A model generated the notes under the pieces. That model had not been told where the DNA came from. It did no database searches and was given only the letters and a program-made list of their open reading frames with translations. 64,000 nucleotides of DNA from a virus (lineage: Duplodnaviria; Heunggongvirae; Uroviricota; Caudoviricetes). Position numbers and translations under genes: made by a program. Positions 41,428 to 55,273 of this stretch are shown piece by piece. The first letter of the stretch is position 1; each line of letters begins with the position of its first letter. The stretch lies in IMG/VR virus record IMGVR_UViG_3300048625_000166; one strand, written 5' to 3'.

Positions 41428-42561
41428 CTATCGTAAATTAATTTTTACGTTAGGGTCTAATGTGATGCTAGACCAATTCTTGTTGAAATTGCCCCATATA
41501 TCTTTCTCATTCTTGTAATCAGAAAGCAATGATAGCAATTGTGGATTGAATCGCTCAACTATCTTACGTTGAATAAGACCTGTTGTGGAATTCAGGGTGA
41601 TATCCTCTACTGACATTCTATGAATCGTTTGAGGGATTCGTATGTCTGCGAAAGGACTAAAAGTCATGTTGTTGTCAATGTGCCAATACTGATGATCATA
41701 AAAAATTGTTGAGTATAAAAACTTCATCAACTGTTCTTGGTCGTAGTATTCTTCCATTGAATCTTTGTACTTGGCTACAACATTGGGACGCTTCAAAAAC
41801 CAATAAAGATAATCAGTTTCTTTAGCTAGTTCGTCAATGTGTTTGCCTTGATAGTTTGCCAATGCGTTGATTGCTTCGCCGTCACGGTACTGATATGTCT
41901 CTGCATAGAAGCCAGTTGCATACCAATTTAATTCCGTAAATGCACTTGATACATCATATCCCCAGTGTTTACTGGATACAAAGTCTACCAAGTCACTATC
42001 GTACTCTCTAACTCTGCCCAAAAACTTATGTAACGTATCGTCACCTTGTTTAGGCACATATGCTGTTAGAGTATAGTCTTTTGTGTAGCTGTCTAGTACA
42101 GCCCATGTTGTTAGGGTATCCAGTCCTGCTGAATACAACACATTCATGCGTTCAATATTATTGTACTTGTAGAAGTTTCGTGTGTTTTCTAACAATATAT
42201 CGCCGATGATAATCGACGACTCTTCCAATGACAGTAGGGTATCATTGGGAATTTTAGGTTCATTGTATGTAACAATGCCGTAGCCTTCAGTGGCTAGGTT
42301 TGTTTGTTCACCATTGCGTTCATATAATGGAAAACCTCTGAGAACTGGGTGATACACTTTTTCGTCATGTATCACGCACCATTTCCCAGCTGGCTGATAG
42401 CCATCAAGTATTTCTAGTAGCGTATCTGCTAGAGTACAATCTACGCTATAACCCTTATACCAGATGTTATCTTTTTGTTTCCAGCCGCCATCTAAAAACA
42501 GGCGATCTGAAACTTTGTTCATCGCCTGTATTGGACAATTGGATCCGATGTAGAAAAACAT
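41428..42561 (-). CDS. PP-loop/asparagine-synthetase-like protein
   Basis: VLYSAGLDT resembles the SGGxDS loop; late SPFAD resembles the PFLD motif. Confidence 0.45.
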   Translation of the reverse strand: MFFYIGSNCPIQAMNKVSDRLFLDGGWKQKDNIWYKGYSVDCTLADTLLEILDGYQPAGKWCVIHDEKVYHPVLRGFPLYERNGEQTNLATEGYGIVTYNEPKIPNDTLLSLEESSIIIGDILLENTRNFYKYNNIERMNVLYSAGLDTLTTWAVLDSYTKDYTLTAYVPKQGDDTLHKFLGRVREYDSDLVDFVSSKHWGYDVSSAFTELNWYATGFYAETYQYRDGEAINALANYQGKHIDELAKETDYLYWFLKRPNVVAKYKDSMEEYYDQEQLMKFLYSTIFYDHQYWHIDNNMTFSPFADIRIPQTIHRMSVEDITLNSTTGLIQRKIVERFNPQLLSLLSDYKNEKDIWGNFNKNWSSITLDPNVKINLR

Positions 42562-42785
42562 TATCGCTTGTTGCCGATGCGCTTTAGATAATCACGGCCG
42601 ACTAGGCCCTTTTCGATTTCTTGCAATGCAGTAACAAGATGGCCTGCTTTTGTTGCTAGTTTTGGTCGATGACCACGGGATAATTCACGAGTACGTTGAC
42701 TTGCGATTAGAATCAAATCATATCGATTGCCAACTGCATTAACTGCATCTTCGCTAGTATAGCGAACTCTACTTTCTGTCGTCAT
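42561..42785 (-). CDS. rpoZ: RNA polymerase omega subunit
   Basis: TSEDAVNAVGNRYDLILIASQRTREL...VTALQEIEKG. Confidence 0.85.
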   Translation of the reverse strand: MTTESRVRYTSEDAVNAVGNRYDLILIASQRTRELSRGHRPKLATKAGHLVTALQEIEKGLVGRDYLKRIGNKR

Positions 42786-42814: not shown

Positions 42815-42890
42815 TGGAGCGGGAAAAGGGGCTCGAACCCTCGACCTATACCTTGGCAAGGTATCGCTCTACCAACTGAGCTATTCCCGC
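42815..42890 (-). tRNA. tRNA-Gly(GCC)
   Basis: Cloverleaf, loop TTGCCAA, CCA. Confidence 0.95.
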
Positions 42891-42896
42891 ATGTTC

Positions 42897-42971
42897 TGGT
42901 ACATCGACACGGTTTCGAACCGCGGACCCTCTCCGTGTAAAGGAGACGCTCTACCCCTGAGCTATCGATGC
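42897..42971 (-). tRNA. tRNA-Val(TAC)
   Basis: Cloverleaf, loop TTTACAC, CCA. Confidence 0.95.
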
Positions 42972-42982
42972 ATATATTCTAT

Positions 42983-43171
42983 TTAGCCACCCTGTTGGCT
43001 ATCTTTAATTTCTGTTCCCCAGTCAATTTCCTTCTTGTCATCAGACATATCAGGTAATGGAGGTGGAACGTAACGTTCACGCTTTGGCTTTTCACCAAAG
43101 ATTTTGTCCATGTTCTCACCGAATTCTGTAGGACTAATACTAAATGGACGAGGACGAGAACCCTTGCTCAT
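42983..43171 (-). CDS. Small hypothetical protein
   Basis: MSKGSRPRPFSI... Confidence 0.6.
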   Translation of the reverse strand: MSKGSRPRPFSISPTEFGENMDKIFGEKPKRERYVPPPLPDMSDDKKEIDWGTEIKDSQQGG

Positions 43172-43338
43172 TACTTAGATTCCTTACGTGAACCCTTCTG
43201 ACGGGCATCGCTCTCTGCGATTTGTGTAAAGCTACGCAAGAATGCGCCACGCTTGTGTGAATCTAGAATTGTTGCAGATGCTATCTTAACTAGCTTGCCT
43301 AGCTTCACTGCTTTTGGATCATAACCTCTACATGTCAT
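43171..43338 (-). CDS. Small hypothetical protein (55 aa)
   Basis: AAGGA RBS; MTCRGYDPKAVKLGK...; not in the ORF track. Confidence 0.6.
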   Translation of the reverse strand: MTCRGYDPKAVKLGKLVKIASATILDSHKRGAFLRSFTQIAESDARQKGSRKESK

Positions 43339-43361
43339 ACTATTTTCCTTTTATGTTAAAT

Positions 43362-43439
43362 TGGTCTCGGTAGTAGGATTCGAACCTACGACCCTCTGCT
43401 CCCAAAGCAGATGCGCTAACCAGACTGCGCTACACCGAG
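43362..43439 (-). tRNA. tRNA-Pro(TGG)
   Basis: Cloverleaf, loop TTTGGGA, CCA. Confidence 0.95.
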
Positions 43440-43445
43440 ATTGTT

Positions 43446-43519
43446 TGGATGCGGGTGACAGATTCGAACTGCCGATGCTCCGAGCTTATGAGACTGGAGT
43501 GGTGACCACCCTACCCGCG
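43446..43519 (-). tRNA. tRNA-iMet(CAT)-like, atypical
   Basis: C1:A72 mismatch, loop CTCATAA; short D arm and bulged anticodon stem. Confidence 0.65.
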
Positions 43520-43530
43520 TAAATCGTTTT

Positions 43531-43605
43531 TGGTGCGTGATAGAGGGATCGAACCTCTGACCTTCTCAATGTCACTGAGATATTCTACCGCTGAAATAAT
43601 CACGC
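43531..43605 (-). tRNA. tRNA-Val(GAC)
   Basis: Cloverleaf, loop GTGACAT, CCA. Confidence 0.9.
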
Positions 43606-43610
43606 ATTTT

Positions 43611-43730
43611 AACAGGTTCTCTTTTTTCGTGCTACCACTACACCAACGCGAAGACCAACTCGCGCCTGGGATTCGAACCCAGCCCCTCTTTTTTACAGAA
43701 AGATTATTAAGATTGCTGAAAAGAACCTAA
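43611..43730 (-). ncRNA. Y-like RNA A4 containing a circularly permuted tRNA-Tyr(GTA)
   Basis: AGGTTCTTTTCAGCAA...AGAACCTG; inside, in order: anticodon arm TCTTT-CTGTAAA-AAAGA, T arm CTGGG-TTCGAAT-CCCAG, loop-closed acceptor, D arm GTGT-AGTGGTA-GCAC. Confidence 0.8.
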
Positions 43731-43740
43731 TGGTCAAACT

Positions 43741-43816
43741 TGGTGGAGGTGACAGGACTCGAACCCGCTACCTATTGCTTGCAAAGCAACCGCTCTCCCA
43801 GGTGAGCTACACCCCC
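43741..43816 (-). tRNA. tRNA-Ala(TGC)
   Basis: G3:U70, loop TTTGCAA, CCA. Confidence 0.95.
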
Positions 43817-43891
43817 GAAATTTGTTACACACTACTTATCTCATTATACGCCATGTGTAAGGGCGAGGCTTCTAACTCTTTCGAGTTTTGT

Positions 43892-43968
43892 TGGTGCGGA
43901 TGGTGGGACTCGAACCCACAAAATTTGGCTTCTAAGACCAACACGTATACCAATTCCATCACATCCGC
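43892..43968 (-). tRNA. tRNA-Leu(TAG), short variable loop
   Basis: Loop CTTAGAA; 5-nt variable region. Confidence 0.9.
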
Positions 43969-44320: not shown

Positions 44321-45198
44321 TGGAGCACTGAGAATACATGCTTACCGAGTAACACCTCAGACATTATTACAATCCTTGCGAGACTGCTTTCTTCTGACTT
44401 CCACTGCAACCTCTTGCGAGTATCACAGTCTGTTACCAACATCGCCGTTTTAAGTCAGGCATTAGACTTGACGCTGTATGCTATTCTACGCTTTCTATCC
44501 CGTTGACCTTTAGAGCCATTCACTACCGCTAAGTAGTTACGAAACTTCCTGCATAAACAGATTTCACCTTGCGAGTTACGTCTGACTGGATTATCTTGCG
44601 ACTCCAGTATTAGATGCTTTTCACATACAACCGAGACAGACTTTGCTTTTTTAATCGATAGAAGGGATCGAACCTTCAGCCGACTGCTTGAAAATGCAGT
44701 TGATCTACCATTGATCTATATCAACCTACTGTGATGTGCTGTCTCAGTTGCTTCATAATCTTTTGGACTACAAAATACAACACGCCACGTACCTTTTGTC
44801 TCGCGGACTACTCAGTCGTCTTTCACGATTAATGTCGGGTCTCGGCTTTCGCGTACCTCCATCAACCATTCAAACTGCATTACAACTCTTAGATGCGACT
44901 CCTCGAATCATAACACTACCCTTTCTCATACCAATTAACTGGACTGGTTTTGTCGTGAGGTCAGCACCACCTGTTACTCTCTAATGACTTGCGTTACCCT
45001 CGATATTATCTCAGGCGCTTAAGCCACTAATTCTTTCCACAACTTCCAGCGTCATTGTTATCACCACCGGTCTTATCAGTGATGAAACCCTCGCGGGTTT
45101 GAGCAGGCTTGCTTAGATGAACTATTTCTAGCGCGGGTCTGTAGGAGACTACCGCTTTGGGCCGATCACTCGGCTTATTCTAATGAGGCTAAGCCCCC
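44321..45198 (-). ncRNA. About 880-nt large structured RNA, GOLLD-like
   Basis: No credible CDS; many GNRA-capped hairpins (CTCGCAAGAG, CCGCGAGG, GCGAAAGC); 5' GGGGGC can pair with 3' GCTCC-A; located in a tRNA array; embedded tRNA-like domain. Confidence 0.6.
44653..44725 (-). ncRNA. tRNA-like domain embedded in the large RNA, 8-nt anticodon loop
   Basis: D arm GATC-AATGGTA-GATC, ACTGC-ATTTTCAA-GCAGT, T arm GAAGG-TTCGATC-CCTTC, no CCA. Confidence 0.7.
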
Positions 45199-45203
45199 AT
45201 AAA

Positions 45204-45320
45204 TTCTTATACTCGCATACACTTGCAATATTGAAATTGCCTACCGGAAGGATATCTCACATCCAGCTGTGTCCGCTCACATCCGTATGGCCTATACGTT
45301 TATGTATGCGAGTATAAGAA
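45204..45320 (-). ncRNA. Long-stem RNA B3
   Basis: 17-bp perfect inverted repeat TTCTTATACTCGCATAC / GTATGCGAGTATAAGAA. Confidence 0.55.
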
Positions 45321-45325
45321 CTACT

Positions 45326-45428
45326 TTCTTAACATTGTTGAACATACTAGTGCATTTCCAAATTATGCTACTCCTCATCAGGGATGGAATCGAACCAACA
45401 TCCCTAATACATTCAACAATGCTAAGAA
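45326..45428 (-). ncRNA. YrlA-like permuted tRNA mimic
   Basis: About 25-bp terminal helix enclosing a T arm (TGG-TTCGATT-CCA), a mini acceptor hairpin and a D arm (TA-GCAT-AATTTGGAA-ATGC). Confidence 0.65.
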
Positions 45429-45444: not shown

Positions 45445-45514
45445 TTTTTAAAGAACATCACTGATTTCTCAGTGTCAATACAAGTATTGTATAAGGTTTT
45501 TAATTCACTGTCAA
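45445..45514 (-). promoter_or_regulatory. sigma70 promoter followed by boxB-boxA antitermination site
   Basis: TTGACA-17-TACAAT; CACTGA-GAAA-TCAGTG; TGTTCTTTAAAAA. Confidence 0.75.
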
Positions 45515-45544
45515 CAACTTTTTTAAGATTGTTAACCATTTTAT

Positions 45545-45620
45545 TGGAGCGGGAGGCGGGAGTCGAACCCGTCTATTTCAGTTTGGAAGACTAACGTGTA
45601 ACCACAAACACTTCACCCGC
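45545..45620 (-). tRNA. tRNA-Gly(TCC)
   Basis: Loop CTTCCAA, CCA. Confidence 0.9.
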
Positions 45621-45632
45621 ATAAATAACTTT

Positions 45633-45797
45633 ATGCATATCTATGACGCTATCACAAACTCTGGATTACACATCCACTTGTCCATGAGCGCCGATAATAC
45701 ATTTTACATTCTAGTATACGACATTGATAACTTCATGTTAACTATGAAATTTTTCAACAATGTAGATACTGCAATGCAATTTATCCATTCACTATGA
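45633..45797 (+). CDS. Small hypothetical protein (54 aa), antisense to the tRNA array
   Basis: ATG 5 nt after ATAAATA; ATGA overlap with the next ORF. Confidence 0.5.
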   Translation: MHIYDAITNSGLHIHLSMSADNTFYILVYDIDNFMLTMKFFNNVDTAMQFIHSL

Positions 45798-45985
45798 GTA
45801 GCCCAACAGATTACGAAATCTTATATAGATTAAACACTAGTCCATATGCAGAGACTAAGAGTTGGGTACTGCCTAATACATTCAAAGCAATGTTCTCAAA
45901 TGAGAACTTACCTGAATTTGTTATTGATGAACTATTAAAGAAACAGACGTTTAAATTAGACGATCAGTTTCCTCAATACAAATAA
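45794..45985 (+). CDS. Small hypothetical protein, antisense to the tRNA array
   Basis: 63-aa ORF ending just before the tRNA-Trp 3' end. Confidence 0.5.
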   Translation: MSSPTDYEILYRLNTSPYAETKSWVLPNTFKAMFSNENLPEFVIDELLKKQTFKLDDQFPQYK

Positions 45986-45987
45986 TC

Positions 45988-46063
45988 TGGCATCCCGGGA
46001 GGGATTTGAACCCCCAACTTACGGTTTTGGAGACCGTTGCTCTGCCAATTGAACTACCGAGAT
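45988..46063 (-). tRNA. tRNA-Trp(CCA)
   Basis: Loop CTCCAAA, G73, CCA. Confidence 0.95.
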
Positions 46064-46069
46064 ATATAA

Positions 46070-46132
46070 AACAGGATGCTTATTTTTCAATTAAAAGTTG
46101 AATTATAAGATGTTGCTGGACGCATCCTAAAA
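46070..46132 (-). ncRNA. Y-like RNA A5 displaying a Lys(TTT) anticodon stem-loop
   Basis: AGGATGCGTCCAGCAA...TTCAA-CTTTTAA-TTGAA...AAGCATCCTG. Confidence 0.75.
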
Positions 46133-46134
46133 CT

Positions 46135-46224
46135 TGGCGGAAACGGTGAGATTCGAACTCACGGACCCTTTGAAAGATCGCCGGTTTTCAAGACCGGAGC
46201 CATAGACCACTCGACCACGTTTCC
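46135..46224 (-). tRNA. tRNA-Ser(TGA)
   Basis: Loop CTTGAAA, long variable arm, G73. Confidence 0.95.
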
Positions 46225-46238
46225 ATTAAAATATTTAT

Positions 46239-46322
46239 ACCATATGTAAACACACTAGCGTTTTTCACTAAACTACAACTTGACTGGACTTGACCAGTGA
46301 CTCTATTGTGCTTGCATATGGT
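46239..46322 (-). ncRNA. Long-stem RNA B4
   Basis: ACCATATGCAAGCACAATAG...TAGTGTGTTTACATATGGT. Confidence 0.55.
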
Positions 46323-46436
46323 GACAGTTTAGTCCGATAACTGCCAAGAGTTGTGGTGATCCGGCACACCTTTTATGTATAAGTTGACTACAAGAGGCTT
46401 ATACACTAGGGCCTTCACGTTGCCCTATTTTTTAAT

Positions 46437-46561
46437 ACCATATAGAAACACACTGTCGTTTCTCTTTCCAGTCTAGACAACCTCGCTTACGAAGCACGAT
46501 TATATCACAGGATTACGCATCCTGCTCGTCACTGTACTCAAGCAATGTGTTTTTATATGGT
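46437..46561 (-). ncRNA. Long-stem RNA B5
   Basis: ACCATATAAAAACACATTG...CAGTGTGTTTCTATATGGT; begins in the ACCA of tRNA-Lys. Confidence 0.55.
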
Positions 46562-46632
46562 AGGGGCACAGGGAATCGAACCCTGATAGACCGGTTAAAA
46601 GCCGGATATTCTAGCCGTTGAATTATACCCCC
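46558..46632 (-). tRNA. tRNA-Lys(TTT)
   Basis: Loop CTTTTAA, CCA. Confidence 0.9.
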
Positions 46633-46635
46633 ATA

Positions 46636-46710
46636 TGGTCCCAGTGCTGAGATTCGAACTCAGTTCTCTCGGCTTAAGAGGCCGGACTTCACCTTCAAAG
46701 TTTCTCTGGG
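46636..46710 (-). tRNA. tRNA-Lys(CTT)
   Basis: Loop CTCTTAA, CCA; atypical D arm. Confidence 0.8.
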
Positions 46711-46772
46711 ATGGATCGTAAGAAATTTTCTTTTACGTGCCATCTGAGACCATACGGGGGTCAAAGATGACA

Positions 46773-46796
46773 CTATCGTTTACCTGAACGTTTCAT
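46773..46796 (-). other. 7-codon mini-ORF MKRSGKR followed by two hairpins
   Basis: AAGGT RBS; ATG AAA CGT TCA GGT AAA CGA TAG; then GTGTCATCT/AGATGGCAC stem. Confidence 0.45.
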
Positions 46797-46809
46797 GTCA
46801 TTTACCTTT

Positions 46810-47166
46810 TTAAGATTTAAGTGCTTTTAAAATATTATCCCAAGATTCAGTTGGATTATGACCTTGATCTAGCAAGGCAACATAAGTCTTAACTGCATCT
46901 TCTGGAATCTTGAAATAGATGTTTGCGTAGGTGCAGTCGAATGAATCATCTTCATCACGAACGTACCATGGATGACTTGACATTTCATCAAATACATCTT
47001 CATAGTCTTCACGATTGCCACCACCATTACGTGTGTGAACAACAATGTGACCATCTTCTACATAAACATCACGAAAGCGACCGAAGTCACCTTTTGTTTT
47101 ATCTAACAGACTCAGGAGTTGATCCGAGTTAGGGTTAGTGCCAAACATCATGTTATACAAACTCAT
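46810..47166 (-). CDS. Hypothetical protein
   Basis: AAGGAG RBS before MSLYNMMFG; ORF-track extension overlaps tRNA-Cys. Confidence 0.7.
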   Translation of the reverse strand: MSLYNMMFGTNPNSDQLLSLLDKTKGDFGRFRDVYVEDGHIVVHTRNGGGNREDYEDVFDEMSSHPWYVRDEDDSFDCTYANIYFKIPEDAVKTYVALLDQGHNPTESWDNILKALKS

Positions 47167-47264
47167 TTCATTCTCCTTTGTTAATTTGTGGAAGTTCCGA
47201 TAGCACCCATCGTCACTTACAACCGTTGAGTAGCCTTGCATCAAAACAGTGCTACTATTTGCTC

Positions 47265-47339
47265 TGGAGGACAGGATAGGAATCAAACCTACCTAGAACG
47301 GATTTGCAATCCGCCACATAATCGCTCTGTCACCTGTCC
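47265..47339 (-). tRNA. tRNA-Cys(GCA)
   Basis: Loop TTGCAAA, U73; T loop TTTGATT. Confidence 0.85.
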
Positions 47340-47348
47340 ATATTTTGT

Positions 47349-47436
47349 TGGCGGAGCATGTAGGAATCGAACCTACTCACCTCTTTCGAAATGATGGATT
47401 AGCAATCCATTGCCTTAACCGGTCGGCCAATGCTCC
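47349..47436 (-). tRNA. tRNA-Ser(GCT)
   Basis: Loop TTGCTAA, long variable arm. Confidence 0.95.
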
Positions 47437-47451
47437 GTAAAATATCTGATT

Positions 47452-47620
47452 AAAAATCATAAAATAGTGTATTCAGCTGGCAGACTGCAACAAGATACTA
47501 TCCTCTAATATATTAGTATCACAGTGATATTAAGTTCCGGACCCTAATATCACCAAAGTCTGGCAAATAAGATATATAAATTCAAAGTTTATTAAATGAA
47601 TACACTAATTTATGATTTTT
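47452..47620 (-). ncRNA. Long-stem RNA B8 with internal multi-way junction
   Basis: AAAATCATAAATTAGTGTATTCA...TGAATACACTATTTTATGATTTT. Confidence 0.55.
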
Positions 47621-47696
47621 GGTGGGCCCAACAGGACTCGAACCTGTGGCCAAGGAATTATGAGTTCCCTGCTCTAACCAACTGAGCTATAGGCCC
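47620..47696 (-). tRNA. tRNA-Ile2(CAT)
   Basis: GGGCCTATAGCTCAG body typical of lysidine-modified Ile2; loop CTCATAA. Confidence 0.85.
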
Positions 47697-47706
47697 ATAA
47701 TCTAAA

Positions 47707-47886
47707 ACCATATTATAATACACTCCCAATGCATGTCAAGCACTGTAACTTCATGGTACATCTTGAACCACAGTTTCGAACCTGTGAAATGTAGCACTAT
47801 CTAGTATCAACTCTTTCGAATTCAAAACATACTAGACCCGGCAAGCTGGGGCCTCTATATATGACAAGAGTATACTATAATATGGT
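47707..47886 (-). ncRNA. Long-stem RNA B6
   Basis: ACCATATTATAGTATACTC...GAGTGTATTATAATATGGT; begins in the ACCA of tRNA-Leu; internal T-arm-like CACAG-GTTCGAAA-CTGTG. Confidence 0.55.
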
Positions 47887-47969
47887 GCGGGTGGCCGGAA
47901 TCGAACCGGCACGGTGTCTCCACCGACGGATTTTAAGTCCGTTACGTCTACCTATTTCATCACACCCGC
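47883..47969 (-). tRNA. tRNA-Leu(TAA)
   Basis: Loop CTTAAAA, long variable arm. Confidence 0.95.
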
Positions 47970-47976
47970 ATATTAC

Positions 47977-48053
47977 TGGCGCCTCGTAGGGGACTCGAAC
48001 CCCTGGCCTCTTGCGTGACAGGCAAGCGATCTAACCAACTGAGCTAACGAAGC
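47977..48053 (-). tRNA. tRNA-Asp(GTC)
   Basis: Loop CTGTCAC, G73. Confidence 0.95.
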
Positions 48054-48058
48054 GTAAA

Positions 48059-48210
48059 TGGTGGGCTATCGCGGATTCAAACCACGCAACAACTCTATGT
48101 TGTAGAGTTAGGATTTCCAATCACTCTAAAGCCTATAAATTCATCACCGTTGACGTTTTACCATTGAAAGACACGGTGCCATCTGTCTCAGTCGCATTAC
48201 CTATCACCCC
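48059..48210 (-). ncRNA. 152-nt tRNA-like RNA (Ser-GGA-like loop, expanded D region)
   Basis: GGGTGAT/ATAGCCC-ACCA acceptor, T arm CGTGG-TTTGAAT-CCGCG, loop TTGGAAA, variable hairpin ACAAC/GTTGT. Confidence 0.55.
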
Positions 48211-48259
48211 ATGCTCGGATTCATAGATAGGCATTCTACTGATAATTCAATGTTTATCT

Positions 48260-48346
48260 TGGTGGATGCGGCTGGAGTTGAACCAGCAGTGCCTTTCGGG
48301 CGGCGGGTTTACAGCCCGCTGGGGTTACCAATTTTCCTACACATCC
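48260..48346 (-). tRNA. tRNA-Tyr(GTA)
   Basis: Loop CTGTAAA, long variable arm. Confidence 0.95.
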
Positions 48347-48347
48347 A

Positions 48348-48776
48348 TTATTTGTTTTTGCCACACCAAGTGTCAGTCTGTGAATGACAATTGGGACAGA
48401 GTAATCTTAAGTTTTTAAACTTGTGATTGTGATTATCGCCGTCTATGTGATCTAAATGTAGAGAAATTTCTTTTCCCATCCATTCTTCTAATCCACACGA
48501 CGAGCATTTGTTATCTAATATTTTTTCTTTTAACAAACGCTTTTTCAGTTTTAGTGTTTGATATGTAGGATGCAATCCTTCTAGAATTTCATTCAACTCT
48601 ATCTTCTTTGCACCACCACCTATCTTAAAATCTAAACCTAATCTTTTTGCTCTACGCCAAACTGTAACATCTGGCACATTAAAATAATGTGCTAACTTGC
48701 TCAAGACTGGCGTAATGTTATACTGTTCTATCAATTCAGTATCTGTAAACTTTTCTGTACTATGTTTTTGTTTCAT
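48348..48776 (-). CDS. HNH endonuclease with N-terminal HTH-like segment
   Basis: CSSC...LHLDHIDGDNHN...NLRLLCPNCH; ATAAATA 4 nt upstream. Confidence 0.85.
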   Translation of the reverse strand: MKQKHSTEKFTDTELIEQYNITPVLSKLAHYFNVPDVTVWRRAKRLGLDFKIGGGAKKIELNEILEGLHPTYQTLKLKKRLLKEKILDNKCSSCGLEEWMGKEISLHLDHIDGDNHNHKFKNLRLLCPNCHSQTDTWCGKNK

Positions 48777-48819
48777 ACAGTATTTATGAAAAGTTAGATA
48801 TGAAATCTAAAAATAAACT

Positions 48820-48896
48820 TGGTGCCCCCAGCGGGACTCGAACCCGCAGAATCTTGATTTTGAGTCAAGCACGTATACCAATTCCATCACAAGGGC
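48820..48896 (-). tRNA. tRNA-Leu(CAA), short variable loop
   Basis: Loop CTCAAAA. Confidence 0.9.
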
Positions 48897-48901
48897 AAAA
48901 A

Positions 48902-49017
48902 GAAACATACTAGCGATCTACTGTTGTTGTGATTGAACACAGGACTTAGTATAAGTCGTCCCAACTCCGCATCTTTTTAACACAAGTCCTGCGGTTGCTT
49001 GTGAGCTAATATATTTC
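48902..49017 (-). ncRNA. Long-stem structured RNA
   Basis: GAAATATATTAGC/GCTAGTATGTTTC outer stem; CAGGACTT/AAGTCCTG inner stem. Confidence 0.5.
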
Positions 49018-49024
49018 AAAAACT

Positions 49025-49100
49025 TGGTACTCCGTATGGGAATCGAACCCATCTTACCAACGTGAAAGGCTGGTGTCCTAAACCGATAGACGAACGGAGC
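49025..49100 (-). tRNA. tRNA-Glu(TTC)
   Basis: Loop CTTTCAC. Confidence 0.95.
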
Positions 49101-49110
49101 ATAGTTATTC

Positions 49111-49209
49111 ACTATATGTAAACACAAAAGCAATACTAACCGGGCGGTCGATATCGGCGTTAGCCAAGTCACTTACCCAGACTTTCAAACTAATGTGCTT
49201 ACATATAGT
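49111..49209 (-). ncRNA. Long-stem RNA B7
   Basis: ACTATATGTAAGCACATTAG...TTTGTGTTTACATATAGT. Confidence 0.55.
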
Positions 49210-49242
49210 GACTGCTTCACAGCAGTGTATATGTTGGTTGTT

Positions 49243-49312
49243 TTTTTAAAGAACAGTGCTGATTTCTCAGCGTCAATACATGTATTGTATAACATGTTTG
49301 AATCATTGTCAA
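49243..49312 (-). promoter_or_regulatory. sigma70 promoter followed by boxB-boxA
   Basis: TTGACA-17-TACAAT; GCTGA-GAAA-TCAGC; TGTTCTTTAAAAA. Confidence 0.75.
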
Positions 49313-49320
49313 ACTATTTT

Positions 49321-49435
49321 TAAGTATTTTAGATGGATTCGAACCATCGTTTCACTGGCGATTCCCACCATACAGTTACTATGACTTCACTGTGTGGGCC
49401 CTTGCGTCCTAAGCCCCTAGACGATAAGACACTTA
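49321..49435 (-). ncRNA. 115-nt tRNA-like RNA with an expanded anticodon region and no CCA
   Basis: D arm GTCT-AGGGGCTTAG-GAC, T arm GATGG-TTCGAAT-CCATC, AAGTGT/ATACTT acceptor. Confidence 0.55.
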
Positions 49436-49441
49436 GAAATA

Positions 49442-49520
49442 GTCTGACAAATTGTTAAAGAACAGTGATTGATTTCTCAATCGATACACGTATTGTATGC
49501 GAGTTTTTATTTAGTGTCAA
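49442..49520 (-). promoter_or_regulatory. sigma70 promoter followed by rrn-leader-like boxB-boxA
   Basis: TTGACA-17-TACAAT; GATTGA-GAAA-TCAATC; CACTGTTCTTTAACAATTTGTCAGAC. Confidence 0.85.
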
Positions 49521-49565: not shown

Positions 49566-50063
49566 ATGAAAAAGTACGCAACATTAAGCATTGATAGCTC
49601 AACTCTAGCAACTGAAATCATGACATATTTGAAATCTTCAATCGATGTTGAGGATAACGATCATCATATCCATGCATTTCACGTGTTAAATTTGACTGAT
49701 CTTGCCAACACTACACTCAACACTACGTTTACCGGATTAACCGCAAAATTCGTGGGGCATTTGACAATCAATGGCAGTCAAATGTTTAATCATTGCTATG
49801 ATTCTGCATTTATGCTTATTCCATTGGAAGATTGTGAATCAACAGTGGTTAAGATTTTTGACGTTGCTCCTGGCGCAGTATTTAATCCAACTGACTCTTG
49901 CTACATGGACCAAGACTGCACACTAGCAAATGCATTGCCACTTACATCACCTATTGTGATTAGTGCGAATACAACTCACACCATTGAAACAACCAACTTC
50001 ACAAAACTAGCAGATGTGTTAATGATCATCTTCAATGAAGATGTATCAACGTTACTAGCTTAA
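49566..50063 (+). CDS. Hypothetical protein, antisense to the tRNA array
   Basis: ATAAATA at 49541 and AAGGA RBS; 165 aa. Confidence 0.65.
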   Translation: MKKYATLSIDSSTLATEIMTYLKSSIDVEDNDHHIHAFHVLNLTDLANTTLNTTFTGLTAKFVGHLTINGSQMFNHCYDSAFMLIPLEDCESTVVKIFDVAPGAVFNPTDSCYMDQDCTLANALPLTSPIVISANTTHTIETTNFTKLADVLMIIFNEDVSTLLA

Positions 50064-50064: not shown

Positions 50065-50139
50065 TGGTCCGGCGTAGTGGAATCGAACCACTATAATCAC
50101 TTTAGAAGAATGATGTCCTATCCGTTGAACGAACGCCAG
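50065..50139 (-). tRNA. tRNA-Arg(TCT)
   Basis: Loop CTTCTAA. Confidence 0.9.
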
Positions 50140-50164
50140 ATAACTGATAGCATATCACAATAAA

Positions 50165-50203
50165 AAGAAAAAGTCAAGAGATTTTTAGTTTCTTGACTTT
50201 TTT
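50165..50203. terminator. Terminator-like hairpin overlapping a -35 box (TTGACT...TATGCT)
   Basis: AAAAAGTCAAGA-11 nt-TCTTGACTTTTT. Confidence 0.55.
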
Positions 50204-50206
50204 GTT

Positions 50207-50282
50207 TGGCTCCCCTACGTGGGCTCGAACCACGGACATTTTGATTAACAGTCAAACGCTCTACCAACTGAGCTATAGGAGA
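50207..50282 (-). tRNA. tRNA-Asn(GTT)
   Basis: Loop CTGTTAA, G73. Confidence 0.95.
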
Positions 50283-50289
50283 ATAAATG

Positions 50290-50364
50290 TGGTGCCCTCG
50301 AGGTGAATCGAACACCTGATCCTCCGCTTACAAGGCGGATGCATTACCACTCTGCTACAAGGGC
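50290..50364 (-). tRNA. tRNA-Thr(TGT)
   Basis: Loop CTTGTAA. Confidence 0.95.
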
Positions 50365-50382
50365 ATAATTTTATTTATAGTG

Positions 50383-50411
50383 AGTATATCACAGCAAAAC
50401 TTTTTTGTCAA
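50383..50411 (-). promoter_or_regulatory. sigma70-type promoter
   Basis: TTGACA-17-TATACT. Confidence 0.75.
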
Positions 50412-50430
50412 GTCTTGCCATGATATCTTC

Positions 50431-50991
50431 CTACGAAAGCAAGATTCTAGAATGCTTTGGCACACCTGCCATCAAGTATTCCATTTGGTCTGCAAGAATT
50501 GTTCGTTGTTGCAGAATCATGTTTTCATAGTGGTTAGGTTCATAAGGAACATAAAGTAGTTCCATACGTGCTTCTTTCAAAGACTTATGACCCTTCTTAG
50601 AGTTACATTCCTTACATGCAGTAACTACGTTCATCCAAGTGTTGTCGCCGCCATGGTACCGAGGTACAATGTGGTCACGGCTTAGATTGTGATAGTTAGG
50701 GAAATGTCCACCACAGTATGCACAAACATACCGGTCACGACCAAACAATGTCTTGTTAGTCAATGCAACATGTGCGTGACGATGTGGGTTATAACCATGA
50801 CCCTTGATAGCAATAATAGAAGGAGATTCTAGGTAGCTTAGTGATCCGTCACGTTGTACGCCACCACGATACTTCGCAACAATTTCACCCATAGACCATG
50901 CTACGGAGTCAGTTGCGTGATATGCAATTGCGTCATCGTTTGAGATCCATTGCCGGGGAACTCCTGAAATATCTAGTGCTAGAACAGCCAT
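50431..50991 (-). CDS. HNH endonuclease (McrA/HNH_5-like)
   Basis: LFGRDRYVCAYCG...SRDHIVP...GGDNTWMNVVTACKECNSKKG. Confidence 0.9.
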   Translation of the reverse strand: MAVLALDISGVPRQWISNDDAIAYHATDSVAWSMGEIVAKYRGGVQRDGSLSYLESPSIIAIKGHGYNPHRHAHVALTNKTLFGRDRYVCAYCGGHFPNYHNLSRDHIVPRYHGGDNTWMNVVTACKECNSKKGHKSLKEARMELLYVPYEPNHYENMILQQRTILADQMEYLMAGVPKHSRILLS

Positions 50992-51036
50992 GCTTTTCTC
51001 CTTTGTGTTACTGTCTACATTTATTTAATGTTCCTT

Positions 51037-51111
51037 TGGAGGGTCGTACAAGATTCGAACTTGTGACTGCTGGTTTCGAAGACCAGAACTCTTCCACTGA
51101 GCTAACGACCC
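51037..51111 (-). tRNA. tRNA-Arg(TCG)
   Basis: Loop CTTCGAA. Confidence 0.9.
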
Positions 51112-51120
51112 ATGTTAATG

Positions 51121-51149
51121 ATTATATGACAAACACCATTATTTGTCAA
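51121..51149 (-). promoter_or_regulatory. sigma70-type promoter
   Basis: TTGACA-17-TATAAT. Confidence 0.8.
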
Positions 51150-51152
51150 ACT

Positions 51153-51228
51153 TGGTGGCCTCGGGCGGGATCGAACCACCGACACATGGATTTTCAATCC
51201 ACTGCTCTACCATCTGAGCTACGAGGCC
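51153..51228 (-). tRNA. tRNA-Phe(GAA)
   Basis: Loop TTGAAAA. Confidence 0.95.
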
Positions 51229-51229
51229 A

Positions 51230-51403
51230 TTATTTTTGTTCTGGTATCTTACGCAAGCTATCTAGCTTCACTAGACAATCACGTTGAGTACCCATTCTGA
51301 ATACGCGCAGATAATCTACGCCATCAATCTTTTGAATGTCCTTCATGTTTTTACAGAAGAACTTTTCCTTGTTTCTGACATTTTCGAAATAAGTTGTTTT
51401 CAT
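51230..51403 (-). CDS. Small hypothetical protein (57 aa)
   Basis: AAGGAG RBS before MKTTYFE. Confidence 0.6.
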   Translation of the reverse strand: MKTTYFENVRNKEKFFCKNMKDIQKIDGVDYLRVFRMGTQRDCLVKLDSLRKIPEQK

Positions 51404-51417
51404 ATCATTCTCCTTCT

Positions 51418-51494
51418 TGGTACCCCAGATGGGACTCGAACCCACAGATACAACGACCTCAACGTTGCGTGTCTACCAATTCCACCACCGGGGC
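51418..51494 (-). tRNA. tRNA-Leu(GAG), short variable loop
   Basis: Loop TTGAGGT. Confidence 0.9.
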
Positions 51495-51602
51495 ATATAT
51501 TAGTGCCAGGTTGTCCTTGTCCCTAGCGTTGCGGCAAGTTGTTTTAGGTTTTGCTTTTACTATGGATCCGCTTTACCTTAAACCACAAAAGGATTTAAAC
51601 AC

Positions 51603-51692
51603 TGGCAGAGAGTAAGGGATTCGAACCCTTGTGCCGCGCTAGCGACCATCACCTTTCCAAGATGCGCCCTTAAGCCTCTCGGGCAACTCTCT
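51603..51692 (-). tRNA. tRNA-Ser(GGA)
   Basis: Loop TTGGAAA, long variable arm. Confidence 0.9.
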
Positions 51693-51697
51693 ATATT

Positions 51698-51796
51698 TGG
51701 TGCCTCTGGCAGGACTCGAACCTGCACACTGTGGCTTATCTAGCCACTGCTTTGGGGAGGTATAAGCTCCCTTCTTTACCATTAAGCTACAGAGGC
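51698..51796 (-). tRNA. tRNA-Ile(TAT) with a long variable arm (99 nt)
   Basis: GGGAG-CTTATAC-CTCCC; variable hairpin GTGGCT/AGCCAC. Confidence 0.8.
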
Positions 51797-51803
51797 ATTA
51801 TCT

Positions 51804-51895
51804 TGGCGGAAAGCAGAGGAGTCGAACCCCATCCCCGTTAGGAGAACCCAGTTTTCAAGGCTGGTCGGCACACCAACGCGCCTGCATTACTTTCC
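51804..51895 (-). tRNA. (8/4)-fold tRNA-Ser(TGA)
   Basis: 8-bp acceptor GGAAAGTA/TGCTTTCC, 4-bp T stem, 5-bp D stem, loop CTTGAAA. Confidence 0.75.
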
Positions 51896-51896
51896 T

Positions 51897-52901
51897 TTAT
51901 TTTTTGACGCCACGGGATGGATTGAGCAATTCATGTAGATGCTCAATATATCGGTGGACTTCTTGATACACTAATTTTAGGTATCGTCTACGAACCTGCA
52001 CTTCTTGTGGGTTGCGCGGTTCGGCGAATCTATTGCTGATTCTATTGTTTATGTAAGAAATGATATCTTCACTTTCAATGCGAGGAATATCTTGTAGTCT
52101 TTCAACTTTATCTAAGCCATTTGCTTTAATAACGTCTAATGCCATTTGATGTGCAAATGCGGCAATTTCTTGTGGACTAGCATAATACAAGTCGTAGTAA
52201 CGATCTTTGTTCTTAGACTTTACAGCCTTTTGTGCGGCGCTGTAGAACTCACCCTTAGTTTTATCTAAGTAGCTACGATATTCAGTCTTGCCTAGTGGTC
52301 TATGTGCCTGTTGCTTGTGTTGAACTAAGTGTACTGCCTCGTGAACTACAATTGATACAATCTTGTCGATTGCACTGTCCATGTCTTTCAAAAGTACATT
52401 AAGAATTTCTCTGTCATTAGATTTCAACATCTTGAACAAGAAACTCATGCCCTTTGTTCTATCGCCTGCCTCATAATTGTCATACAAATAAATGCTAAAA
52501 CGATTCATGATTGTACGAGCAATTGCTGGCAAGTAAGCACGATTAATAACCATGTTAGAACCCTGTGCGTAACCGCCCATGCCCTTCATGGTACCAAATC
52601 TGAACTTAGATATTGCGTCTTTACCAAGGATCTTTTCCAAGGTAAGTTTCATTTGTTTGGTAATACCTTTTTCAATCTTTTCATTACCTTCACGTTGCAT
52701 GAACTCACGTACATAACGATCACTTAGGTTATCGTCGTTTAAGATTTCTTGCAAGTTTGGATTGTTCATGAATGACTTTTCCAATGCAGACACGCCATTA
52801 ATAATGCCGTCTTTAACAGCCCTTGACAAGTCTTCTTCATACTTGGTCATACTTATGGCTTCATCGACCACTTCTTCATTAACAAATTCAAATATACGCA
52901 T
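51897..52901 (-). CDS. Hypothetical protein with HExxH motif
   Basis: Start MRIFEF 8 nt after ATAAATA; VVHEAVHLVQ. Confidence 0.6.
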   Translation of the reverse strand: MRIFEFVNEEVVDEAISMTKYEEDLSRAVKDGIINGVSALEKSFMNNPNLQEILNDDNLSDRYVREFMQREGNEKIEKGITKQMKLTLEKILGKDAISKFRFGTMKGMGGYAQGSNMVINRAYLPAIARTIMNRFSIYLYDNYEAGDRTKGMSFLFKMLKSNDREILNVLLKDMDSAIDKIVSIVVHEAVHLVQHKQQAHRPLGKTEYRSYLDKTKGEFYSAAQKAVKSKNKDRYYDLYYASPQEIAAFAHQMALDVIKANGLDKVERLQDIPRIESEDIISYINNRISNRFAEPRNPQEVQVRRRYLKLVYQEVHRYIEHLHELLNPSRGVKK

Positions 52902-52922
52902 AGTACATATATTTATCTTATT

Positions 52923-53000
52923 TGGTGTGTCCTGTTGGAATCGAACCAACTTCTCCGATTTTTCAGACCGGCGCTGAATGACCACACTAGCTCAGGACAC
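52923..53000 (-). tRNA. tRNA-Phe(GAA), second divergent copy
   Basis: Loop CTGAAAA. Confidence 0.85.
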
Positions 53001-53001
53001 A

Positions 53002-53364
53002 TTAAATTGTTTTATATCTTTTATCTTTTTGCTTGTGTTCTACGTCCCACTTGATTGCGGCGCCAGAACAAAACTTTTCATCTTTCCAGAATCTTGCTCC
53101 ATTCAATATGAATGGCTTCAATACTCTATCACCGTTCCACCAACCACGTTGGCATTTAATGAAGCCTTTTGCTTCTAATTCGTTTCGTAGTTCTTTGAAC
53201 TCTGGATGATCATCATGTGACAATGACTTACATCGATCCTCGCCCTTGATAATCTTAATCAATTGATCTGGTGTTAGTTCGTTTACTGGAATGTGATCAT
53301 ACATTCCCCACTCTTTTTCAATCTTAACATCACATAATGAATTCATGTCGATTTCAAACTTCAT
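53002..53364 (-). CDS. Hypothetical protein
   Basis: GGAGG RBS before MKFEIDM. Confidence 0.65.
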   Translation of the reverse strand: MKFEIDMNSLCDVKIEKEWGMYDHIPVNELTPDQLIKIIKGEDRCKSLSHDDHPEFKELRNELEAKGFIKCQRGWWNGDRVLKPFILNGARFWKDEKFCSGAAIKWDVEHKQKDKRYKTI

Positions 53365-53530
53365 GCTTCCTCCATTGTAGGTTTTTGAGCGCCCAACTAT
53401 CTTTCTCAAGGACTCACTGGATTGTCTCGTATGAAGGAGTTTAGCAACCTTGTACTGCTACTGGCGTGTCAGTCACAAGAATAGGGACCTAGCGCACAAG
53501 GGACTCTACTTCTACGTCTATCTCAAAAAT

Positions 53531-53585
53531 TGGTGGTAGGCTTTCCTGGCACATGTAACCAGTAAGGCCCGGGCGCCGCCTACCA
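53531..53585 (-). ncRNA. 55-nt CCA-ending minihelix-like RNA
   Basis: TGGTAGGC/GCCTACCA-CCA stem; inner CTGG/CCAG hairpin. Confidence 0.45.
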
Positions 53586-53594
53586 TAACTCGAA

Positions 53595-53676
53595 TGTGTG
53601 TTGTAGGATTCGAACCTACATCAGGAGGTTTTTAGGCCTCTTGTAATGATGCCCTAAACATTTATACGAAACACAC
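53595..53676 (-). pseudogene. Degenerate tRNA-like element
   Basis: GTGTGTT/AACACAC acceptor, T arm GTAGG-TTCGAAT-CCTAC, 8-nt loop CCTAAAAA, no CCA. Confidence 0.55.
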
Positions 53677-53681
53677 AAAAC

Positions 53682-53939
53682 TGGCTTCGTTAGCAAGACT
53701 CGAACTTGCGATAGTGGCTTCAAATCGCGTATGCTGGGTGCCACCGTGTTTCCCAAAGTTACCCTCGTATCCCCTCTGCTAGTTTATCTCACTTTTCTCA
53801 CATTTCGACCTGTTCCGCACTTCCCGGACTCACAGTGTTTGGTTTTAAAGCCTACGCGATTGTTATCTACTTTGTTTTACTAGTTGCCTTATTAATAGCA
53901 TACTCAATACTACTCTACCTTCCTCTACACTATAACGAA
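53682..53939 (-). ncRNA. 258-nt RNA with tRNA acceptor and T arm enclosing about 200 nt (tmRNA-like architecture)
   Basis: TTCGTTA/TAACGAA-G-CCA; GCAAG-TTCGAGT-CTTGC; internal ATCGCGTA/TACGCGAT helix. Confidence 0.65.
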
Positions 53940-53946
53940 ATAAAAT

Positions 53947-54022
53947 TGGCACCGTAGACGGGAATCGAACCCGCCGCGTCTTCATAGACAGTGAAGTATC
54001 ACCCCTAGGTGAACTCTACGGT
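53947..54022 (-). tRNA. tRNA-Asp(GTC), second divergent copy
   Basis: Loop CTGTCTA (U37), G73. Confidence 0.8.
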
Positions 54023-54027
54023 ATAAA

Positions 54028-54567
54028 TCATTTTACAACATCTTGCCAACGAATGACTAGTGATTTGTCGTAATTTTGAGTTTTGTTCTTTCTGCGATTT
54101 TCCAATGCAGGAAGATACTGAAAGTTATCAGGATGATGTAGACCTCCGCATGCCAATGGCACAATATGGTCGACTTCGTATCCAGTTGGACAACTCTCGT
54201 AAATTTTTCGAATTAACTGACTATCAACGTAATCAGGTGTTGCGTTGTACTTTCTCGCTCTATAGTTTTGTACATTCAACACATTTAATTTTGCAGATTC
54301 GTCTTTCGTTTTTCTTCCAACTTTATCCCAATAAGCTATTCTAGCCTCTGATATTTTGGCAGAATGTTCTGCTGTTCTCGGCTTAAGTTTCTTTCCTTTG
54401 GTACTGGTTTGCTTAATTGAACCAGAAGCAATTCCTTCTTTAACCGAGTTGGCTATTTTTCGTTTCGTTTCATCGGATCTAACTCTAGAGTTAGCACACG
54501 GTCTACAACAATACTTTCCTGATCCATATGATCCATCATGTTCACTATTACATTTGAGGCAAAACAT
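54028..54567 (-). CDS. HNH endonuclease with zinc-finger and NUMOD3-like repeats
   Basis: CLKC...CCRPC; SDETKRKI; YEVDHIVPLACGGLHHPDN...ENRRK. Confidence 0.85.
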   Translation of the reverse strand: MFCLKCNSEHDGSYGSGKYCCRPCANSRVRSDETKRKIANSVKEGIASGSIKQTSTKGKKLKPRTAEHSAKISEARIAYWDKVGRKTKDESAKLNVLNVQNYRARKYNATPDYVDSQLIRKIYESCPTGYEVDHIVPLACGGLHHPDNFQYLPALENRRKNKTQNYDKSLVIRWQDVVK

Positions 54568-54616
54568 ATTAAATTCCTTTAATATATTTATCGAACCTCG
54601 CTCATTCTTTAGTTTT

Positions 54617-54692
54617 TGGCTCCCCAGGATGGGATCGAACCACCGACATCCTGATTAACAGTCAGGCGCAACTACCGCTGTGCTACTGGGGA
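54617..54692 (-). tRNA. tRNA-Asn(GTT)
   Basis: Loop CTGTTAA. Confidence 0.95.
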
Positions 54693-54700
54693 ATAATTCT

Positions 54701-54775
54701 TGGTGCCTCCACCTGGGCTCGAACCAGGGACTCCCACCTTATCAAGATGATACTCTACCACTGAGTTATAGAGGC
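54701..54775 (-). tRNA. tRNA-Ile(GAT)
   Basis: Loop TTGATAA. Confidence 0.9.
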
Positions 54776-54785
54776 AATTAATTGT

Positions 54786-54859
54786 TGGTACCCAGTGCAA
54801 GAATTGAACTTGCGTCTATCGATTATCAGTCGATTGCTCTTCCGTTGAGCTAACCGGGC
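54786..54859 (-). tRNA. tRNA-Ile(GAT)
   Basis: Loop CTGATAA. Confidence 0.9.
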
Positions 54860-54865
54860 ATTGTT

Positions 54866-54941: not shown

Positions 54942-54947
54942 ATTGTA

Positions 54948-55022: not shown

Positions 55023-55029
55023 AAATAAA

Positions 55030-55145: not shown

Positions 55146-55146
55146 T

Positions 55147-55266: not shown

Positions 55267-55273
55267 GATAAAT

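Follow-up and report, generated by a model that had tools for sequence, protein, structure and literature searches.

Three leaders on the minus strand of the DNA analysed here resemble the leaders of bacterial ribosomal RNA (rrn) operons. Each has a near-consensus sigma-70-type promoter followed by a short GAAA-capped hairpin and a perfect boxA, and they precede long, mostly untranslated units of tRNA genes, structured RNAs and the giant GOLLD RNA. By analogy with rrn operons, the phage probably borrows in this way the transcription-elongation machinery of its host. The window, that is, the whole 64,000-nucleotide (nt) stretch, corresponds to bases 182881-246880 of a 364,247-bp IMG/VR virus record, the 364-kb genome of an uncultured lake phage with direct terminal repeats and a G+C content of 41%. 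The 45 tRNA genes of the window and its GOLLD RNA are confined to the minus strand between positions 42815 and 58002.

Anatomy of the leaders

A first-pass annotation, made by a model from the letters of the window, had placed the promoters, the hairpins and the boxA-like 13-mers, and all of them were found there, on the minus strand, when the sequence was read again (Table 1). Every copy consists of a TTGACA-17-TACAAT promoter, a hairpin of 5-6 bp capped by GAAA, a gap of 1-2 nt and the sequence TGTTCTTTAA(A/C)AA, with ACNTGTAT common to all three after the -10 box and a distance of 27-28 nt between the -10 box and boxA. The hairpins vary among the copies only in the outer two to three pairs of the stem, the inner UGA-GAAA-UCA being invariant. 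All three persist when the leaders are folded with longer flanking sequence, and the centroid folds then leave boxA single-stranded in copies 2 and 3. The hairpin lies 5′ of boxA in each copy, which is the order of the Escherichia coli P2 leader and the opposite of that in the lambda nut site.

The combination of hairpin and boxA is specific to these three places. The composite GAAA-N4-7-TGTTCTTTAA has no match in 100 shuffles, and a form with a wider gap and R at the ninth base of boxA, GAAA-N4-9-TGTTCTTTRA, matches exactly three times in the 364,247-bp genome. A covariance model built from leaders of the phage family, described below, scores the three leaders at 47-49 bits across the whole genome, the next-best site reaching 16 bits. 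The 13-mers of all three copies fit GYTCTTTAANA perfectly, a gammaproteobacterial consensus that rests on boxA elements known to function (Baniulyte et al. 2017, PMC5725501); the phage genome has five perfect matches to it where 1.7 are expected, and the leaders account for three of these. Copy 3 carries the likeness past boxA, as its TTTGTCAGAC equals the gammaproteobacterial rrn linker TTTATCAGAC at 9 of 10 bases and the TAAGTGT that follows forms the core of the boxC of Betaproteobacteria, GATAAGTGTGGG.

A leader family in uncultured phages

Other phage contigs in IMG/VR, well above one hundred of them as a minimum, have leaders of this type. A scan for the hairpin core plus boxA returned at least 118 stretches, about 85% of them genuine promoter-hairpin-boxA leaders and the remainder a recurrent coding chance match. 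A second scan imposed only a promoter and TGTTCTTTAA, with no hairpin required, and the pooled loci gave at least 112 distinct leaders; the family counts below refer to these 112 listed leaders. The hairpin ends 0-3 nt before boxA in about 100 of them, with a mean z of -4.1, the loop being GAAA in 50 and GCAA in 10. The spacing between the -10 box and boxA peaks at 26-28 nt, and in 81 the ten imposed bases are followed by AAA or CAA.

The stem shows the covariation of a conserved RNA element. In an alignment of 50 sequences its six pairs are 93.6% paired, five of the six differ in both partners (72 cells), and one pair divides into 25 GC and 24 AU. None of 500 shuffles matched the observed values, which collapse when the partner is slid by 1-3 columns. 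A third scan asked for the promoter and the hairpin core without imposing boxA, and in its listed matches, which are a lower bound, at least 26 new leaders carry a boxA all the same. In these, G2, T4, C5, T6-T8 and A9-A13 are conserved, base 1 is free and base 3 is T, C or A. The bases that vary in the phage boxA are those that vary in the bacterial rrn boxA, for instance GATCTTTAAAA in Paraburkholderia.

The family is linked to non-coding operons. A tRNA lies at most 3 kb downstream in 75 of the 112 listed leaders, namely within 60 nt in 39, within 400 nt and past another structured RNA in 21, and in the remaining class up to 3 kb away in 15; the others lead to a small open reading frame (ORF), mostly of one 82-amino-acid (aa) family (17), to unclassified sequence (18) or to a contig end at most 200 nt from the leader (2). 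GOLLD is found 500-660 nt downstream of a leader in five contigs, the present genome and four others, with differing hairpins.

The small ORFs are a protein-coding use of the same leader type. At twelve loci a leader with the hairpin GTCAGCT-AGAAA-AGTTGAC, followed by TGTTCTTTAACA, stands about 20 nt upstream of a conserved ORF of 82-87 aa beginning MNTKNRVW. A second large class of transcripts, seen at six loci and others, has a promoter and a GAGTTGAGAAATCAACT hairpin with no boxA, followed by a conserved GCGGTGCTCCCCTTCAGTAGGTTCAGGAGCAGCGGCGATAGG-like RNA that is absent from Rfam; one of its contigs has a wcaG RNA nearby, which suggests marine cyanophages. Among the relatives, a permuted (alpha-type) tmRNA lies beside the tRNA and GOLLD region of one (locus L148, 754-1160), and a group I intron inside the tRNA cluster of another (locus L147, 13185-13378).

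Comparison with bacterial rrn leaders

The E. coli reference was the hemG-proximal rrn P2 leader read from a RefSeq chromosome. It reads CACTGCTCTTTAACAATTTATCAGAC, as the first-pass annotation had correctly quoted it, and runs from the promoter through the hairpin GCCGCTGAGAAAAAGCGAAGCGGC, CAC, TGCTCTTTAACAA and TTTATCAGAC to TGTGTGGG; the elements described just past P2 are boxB, boxA and boxC, in this order (PMC10250234). Over the segment from CAC through boxA and the linker, copy 3 is identical to this leader at 24 of 26 bases, and at 25 of 26 to leaders with the T variant TGTTCTTTAACAATTTATCAGAC, which occurs in rrn leaders and 16S-23S spacers of the Pasteurellaceae, several Enterobacterales, Shewanella and Paraferrimonas. 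The 23-mer of boxA and linker of copy 3 has no exact match in 185,579 bacterial species genomes.

A comparison with the rrn leaders of candidate hosts, which had been proposed as a check, was made with leaders collected by anchoring on the 5′ end of 16S, and those of the Betaproteobacteria share both the geometry and the TTTAA-type boxA of the phage copies. In this set, 61 leaders have an exact G[CT]TCTTTAA[ACGT]A, which in most of them ends in AAAAA or AACAA and in four makes boxA exactly TGTTCTTTAAAAA. A hairpin ends 0-4 nt before boxA in 31 of the 61, and a -10 box lies 26-43 nt upstream of boxA in 17, including eight at 26-31 nt, the phage distance being 27-28 nt. In 52 a word resembling boxC (consensus GATAAGTGTGGG) follows 10-18 nt past the boxA 13-mer, and in 49 of these at 10-12 nt.

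The TTTAA form is present in all 61 betaproteobacterial leaders and also in gammaproteobacterial ones (E. coli, Pasteurellaceae), whereas in other phyla (Actinomycetota, Bacillota, Alphaproteobacteria and others) all 20 exact boxA-like words found upstream of 16S have TTTGA and none has TTTAA. The TTTAA-type boxA of the phage points to a beta- or gammaproteobacterial host, which agrees with the 40% identity between enterobacterial RpoZ and the omega-like protein encoded at the end of the array. The proteobacterial host proposed earlier is in this way supported and narrowed to these two classes, and the boxA variant of a phage, which would track the rrn boxA of the host clade (TTTAA in beta and gamma, TTTGA elsewhere), could serve as a marker for host prediction. 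A Pfam scan of the large ORFs and a tblastn search with a 628-aa ORF gave no host clue. Words of the TGTTCTTTGA type in four named genomes of other phyla mostly do not adjoin rRNA genes, and the 16S-anchored leaders were used instead; in a Nanopelagicaceae metagenome-assembled genome with several TGTTCTTTAAAAA words the best one proved to be a coding chance match.

The hairpin has a different standing. A search for the hairpin and boxA composite in the 185,579 bacterial species genomes returned nine matches, all of them coding or chance matches without promoter or stem, so the hairpin is a feature of the phages and not a captured host boxB. Of the rrn-style leader described in the first-pass annotation, boxA, element order and spacing are indeed rrn-like, while no boxB of a host was copied in the hairpin. 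Among cultured phages, blastn with leader 3 found only bacterial contaminant records and chance coding matches, a cyanophage match lying inside a structural gene, and megablast of the region against cultured relatives found tRNA matches only.

The promoters differ from those of rrn operons in the discriminator that follows the -10 box, which averages 30% G+C in the phage family and 80%, typically GCGC, in the 17 betaproteobacterial rrn promoters. GC-rich discriminators underlie the stringent control of rrn promoters, and with its AT-rich discriminator the phage thus seems to have taken over the signal for elongation but not the brake linked to growth rate.

The transcripts behind the leaders

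The leaders serve the distal 6.9 kb of the array, from 49485 to about 42561, which holds 20 of the 45 tRNAs, GOLLD, Y-like RNAs and the gene of an RNA polymerase omega homologue (Table 1). The 25 tRNAs upstream (50065-58002) have other promoters (58895, 58797, 51149 and 50411), none with a boxA, so the earlier claim that the leaders drive the tRNA array stands for the distal part and fails for these 25. The siting of fresh promoters and leaders near leader 3 may be due to the plus-strand ORF that interrupts the array there. Behind leader 1 come some 650 nt of structured RNA, then GOLLD, seven tRNAs and the omega homologue.

Table 1 Leaders, RNAs and genes of the RNA array (positions in the window)
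Feature	Position	Strand	Remarks
Leader 1 promoter	45486-45514	minus	TTGACA-17-TACAAT
Leader 1 hairpin	45459-45474	minus	CACTGA-GAAA-TCAGTG; -7.6 kcal/mol, z -4.3 vs shuffles
Leader 1 boxA	45445-45457	minus	TGTTCTTTAAAAA
Leader 2 promoter	49284-49312	minus	TTGACA-17-TACAAT; 208 bp downstream of promoter 3 (tandem promoters)
Leader 2 hairpin	49258-49271	minus	GCTGA-GAAA-TCAGC; -7.1 kcal/mol, z -2.7 vs shuffles
Leader 2 boxA	49243-49255	minus	TGTTCTTTAAAAA
Leader 3 promoter	49492-49520	minus	TTGACA-17-TACAAT, then AT-rich discriminator ACGTGTA
Leader 3 hairpin	49467-49482	minus	GATTGA-GAAA-TCAATC, in boxB position; -6.0 kcal/mol, z -4.2 vs shuffles
Leader 3 boxA	49452-49464	minus	TGTTCTTTAACAA
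Leader 3 post-boxA segment	49429-49451	minus	TTTGTCAGAC, then TAAGTGT 16 nt past boxA
First RNA of leader 3	49325-49430	minus	about 105 nt; tRNA-like, D- and T-arm motifs, long insert
Unit behind leaders 3 and 2	45545-49235	minus	structured (Y-like) RNAs, 13 tRNA genes, two ORFs
First tRNA of this unit (Glu)	49025-49100	minus	
Last tRNA of this unit (Gly)	45545-45620	minus	
Weak HNH ORF	48348-48776	minus	within the tRNA array; 20.8 bits, below cut-off
Additional consensus promoter	47712-47739	minus	inside the leader 3/2 unit
Unassigned ORF	46810-47286	minus	in the leader 3/2 unit
GOLLD RNA	44325-44788	minus	Rfam RF02032, 203.5 bits; 657 nt downstream of the boxA of leader 1
Seven tRNA genes past GOLLD	42815-43968	minus	Leu, Ala, Val, Met, Pro, Val, Gly
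RNA polymerase omega homologue (RpoZ/Rpb6)	42561-42785	minus	74 aa; Pfam RNA_pol_Rpb6, 40.9 bits, cut-off 26
HNH endonuclease ORF	50431-50991	minus	within the tRNA array; HNH_5, 59 bits, strong
165-aa ORF	49566-50063	plus	good ribosome-binding site, without Pfam match; interrupts the array just upstream of leader 3

The omega gene starts 29 nt past the last tRNA of the leader 1 unit and is likely its distal gene. The search for omega homologues in cultured phage records found none, the sole matches being bacterial contaminant records. In IMG/VR an omega-like protein with 63-81% identity is present in at least 21 relatives, and in 13 of 20 relatives checked its gene starts 5-28 nt past the last tRNA of a tRNA run on the same strand. 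The leader is in this way connected to a phage-encoded omega subunit conserved at the end of such arrays.

Neither ARAGORN nor Rfam calls the tRNA-like first RNA of leader 3, which is seen together with the same boxA-linker sequence in one further contig of the family. Structured modules with CATATRTAAACAC...GCTGTGAAGC motifs lie between the tRNAs (46230-46460 and 49105-49235, minus strand) and at many loci of the family, where they are frequently the first RNA after a boxA leader. The stretch between leader 1 and GOLLD contains a long inverted repeat that is nearly perfect, TTCTTATACTCGCATACA ... TGTATGCGAGTATAAGAA (45200-45330, minus strand), and a stem resembling it, TTCTTATAC, stands directly 3′ of boxA at six loci of relatives.

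Across the whole phage genome there are about 35 sigma-70-type promoters, so the host RNA polymerase is clearly used. The majority belong to an "early" family, TTGACAnTAAATGGnTTTGGnnnTATAAT, found ahead of protein genes. This family has about 30 genome copies with a ribosome-binding site and start codon about 25 nt later and none with a boxA; examples in the window are 12486-12514, 23950-23978, 24754-24782, 34394-34422 and 36542-36570.

Proposed function and alternative explanations

The favoured explanation, at a probability of about two in three, is that host NusB-NusE binds the boxA of the nascent transcript and that an elongation complex like that of rrn operons, resistant to Rho, fast and favourable to RNA folding, forms on the non-coding operons of the phage. 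Host sigma-70 RNA polymerase would initiate at the near-consensus promoter, and the first 45 nt or so of the RNA would present a short GNRA-capped 5′ hairpin and then an exposed, single-stranded boxA, GUUCUUUAA(A/C)AA. On this boxA host NusB-NusE(S10) would, by analogy with rrn operons, assemble and, together with NusA, NusG and probably SuhB, give a processive, Rho-resistant polymerase that also aids RNA folding. The modified polymerase would then cross several kilobases of structured untranslated RNA, that is, tRNAs, Y-like RNAs and GOLLD, and finally reach the omega-subunit gene. Pfam-domain searches of the phage genome for NusB, NusG and S10 gave no match, and the factors used would therefore be those of the host. 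As the GC-rich discriminator is not copied, the stringent response probably leaves the units running. The binding of Nus factors, antitermination, a threat from Rho to the transcript and independence from ppGpp are all expectations drawn from the likeness to rrn operons. Of the rrn elements, boxA is reported to be necessary and sufficient to recruit the antitermination complex, the roles of boxB and boxC being unclear (PMC10250234).

The long transcripts of phage tRNA arrays and of giant RNAs such as GOLLD go untranslated and are natural targets of Rho, and an rrn-type boxA leader ahead of them is a concrete and easily mutated control element. More tentatively, and with the odds rather against it, the present phage and a large group of freshwater relatives might carry a complete pseudo-rRNA operon, in which near-consensus promoters stripped of the discriminator, the hairpin and boxA as a loading site for the host Nus complex, a multi-kilobase cargo of tRNAs, Y-like RNAs and GOLLD, and the omega subunit together re-tool the host polymerase into a ppGpp-insensitive machine of the rrn type, given over to making phage RNA. 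If true, this would provide a first mechanistic handle on the production of GOLLD RNA.

Several observations weigh against Nus recruitment at an rrn-like boxA. A GU-rich boxC (TGTGTGGG or GATAAGTGTGGG, about 10-14 nt past boxA) is absent from copies 1 and 2, and copy 3 has in its place only TAAGTGT at +16; with a boxC-like word in 8 of the 112 listed leaders and none in 104, as against 52 of 61 in the Betaproteobacteria, boxC was rejected as a feature of the family. The strong array promoters at 51149, 50411 and 47739 have no boxA. In a group of marine contigs the inner UGA-GAAA-UCA hairpin also follows promoters that lack boxA, and the hairpin is conserved more strictly than a spacer hairpin needs to be and may have a ligand or role of its own. 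In E. coli whose chromosomal rrn operons are all missing and which relies on one rrn operon carried by a plasmid, moreover, deletion of boxB or boxA has mild effects on growth (PMC10250234). The benefit of the phage boxA may be a quantitative one.

The strict conservation of the hairpin underlies the main rival, in which a phage N-like or other RNA-binding factor on UGA-GAAA-UCA acts together with NusB/E on boxA, the leader being a nut-like site under phage control and not a passive mimic of rrn. The inner stem and the GNRA loop are identical in the three copies and in dozens of contigs, loops of the GNRA type are recognised by lambda N (cited in PMC10250234), and the occurrence of the hairpin behind promoters without boxA, like the lack of the hairpin-boxA composite in bacterial genomes, would suit a factor of the phage. 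The order of hairpin and boxA is, however, the reverse of that in lambda nut, and within the wider family boxA is constant whereas the hairpin is free to differ in sequence and loop (GCAA, pentaloops, longer stems). In genuine rrn leaders a hairpin for which no ligand is known occupies the equivalent position, and no N-like gene or other candidate protein was identified in the phage, no search aimed at arginine-rich N-like proteins having been made. A nut-like site is, on balance, unlikely, if the most serious of the alternatives to Nus recruitment in the rrn manner.

The other explanations fit the position-specific conservation, the covariation and the identity to rrn leaders poorly. That the hairpin blocks 5′-end-dependent decay and the A/U-rich strand behind it is an RNase E site, the likeness to boxA being coincidental, is improbable. 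The hairpin does lie within about 10 nt of the predicted start, the segment past it is A/U-rich and unpaired, and in the 39 listed leaders with a tRNA within 60 nt (typically 10-23 nt) of the first ten bases of boxA a 5′ processing cut would be needed there; a loose preference of RNase E, however, cannot explain the near-invariant G2, C5 and A9-A13, and the boxA-like pattern of variation and the 24-25 of 26 bases shared by copy 3 with rrn leaders would be left unexplained. Even less probable is a weak intrinsic terminator that gates transcription by attenuation or pausing close to the promoter. In a consensus scan two of the three hairpins look like terminators, with the tails ATGTTCTTTA and ACTGTTCTTT, but the stems have 5-6 pairs (-6 to -7.6 kcal/mol) and stand 1-2 nt from an interrupted U tract, and nowhere do the leader hairpins combine the stable GC-rich stem and the immediate run of 7-9 U of a terminator. 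The same layout in E. coli rrn does not terminate, and a terminator would have no need of conserved G, C and A positions. A DNA operator, bound by a dimeric repressor of phage or host at the inverted repeat past the promoter, can hardly be credited: a perfect short palindrome does adjoin the start site, but its half-sites covary, five of the six pairs changing on both sides, a conserved GNRA loop occupies the centre, as expected for RNA, and the neighbouring conserved 13-mer is asymmetric.

Relation to known systems

That rrn operons and lambdoid phages use Nus factors through boxA is classical knowledge. In the literature searched, rrn-type leaders on phage tRNA or GOLLD operons are nowhere described, and there is no account of how phages get their tRNA arrays or giant RNAs transcribed. 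The closest counterpart is the bacterial rrn leader, on which the rrnTAC complex (NusA/B/E/G, SuhB and S4) forms. It likewise consists of a sigma-70 promoter, a hairpin and a single-stranded boxA ahead of a long untranslated structured RNA that includes tRNAs, the distance from the -10 box to boxA and the abutting hairpin of the phage match betaproteobacterial rrn promoters, and copy 3 adds a gammaproteobacterial linker and the boxC-like TAAGTGT. The phage leaders differ in their location in a phage, in driving no rRNA, and in their phage-specific hairpin and AT-rich discriminator; furthermore, boxC is missing from two of the three copies and from most relatives, and no leader-trailer helix is evident.

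With the lambdoid nut sites (boxA-boxB, bound by the N protein) the phage leaders share a phage transcript in which a boxA and a hairpin of the GNRA type would, by analogy, recruit host Nus factors. In contrast to nut, the hairpin stands 5′ of boxA, the boxA is of the full rrn type and not the shortened one of lambda, and the targets are non-coding RNA operons instead of the delayed-early genes. T7 (NC_001604) is similar in that it is lytic, lacks N and has a boxA of the rrn type behind host promoters; read directly, its CGCTCTTTAACAA lies 62 nt downstream of the start of the host-polymerase promoter A3. It has, however, one copy of boxA, with no abutting GNRA hairpin and ahead of protein-coding early genes. 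The T7 boxA has reportedly been noted in older literature, and no open paper on it was found.

That boxA works outside rrn operons is known from genes of the suhB type (Baniulyte et al. 2017, PMC5725501). In that case a Nus complex on the 5′ untranslated region of suhB represses translation and promotes Rho termination, in contrast to the phage leaders, whose targets are mostly untranslated. If these leaders act as proposed, the hijacking of Nus factors would extend from the regulation known in lambdoid phages to bulk RNA production by large lytic phages.

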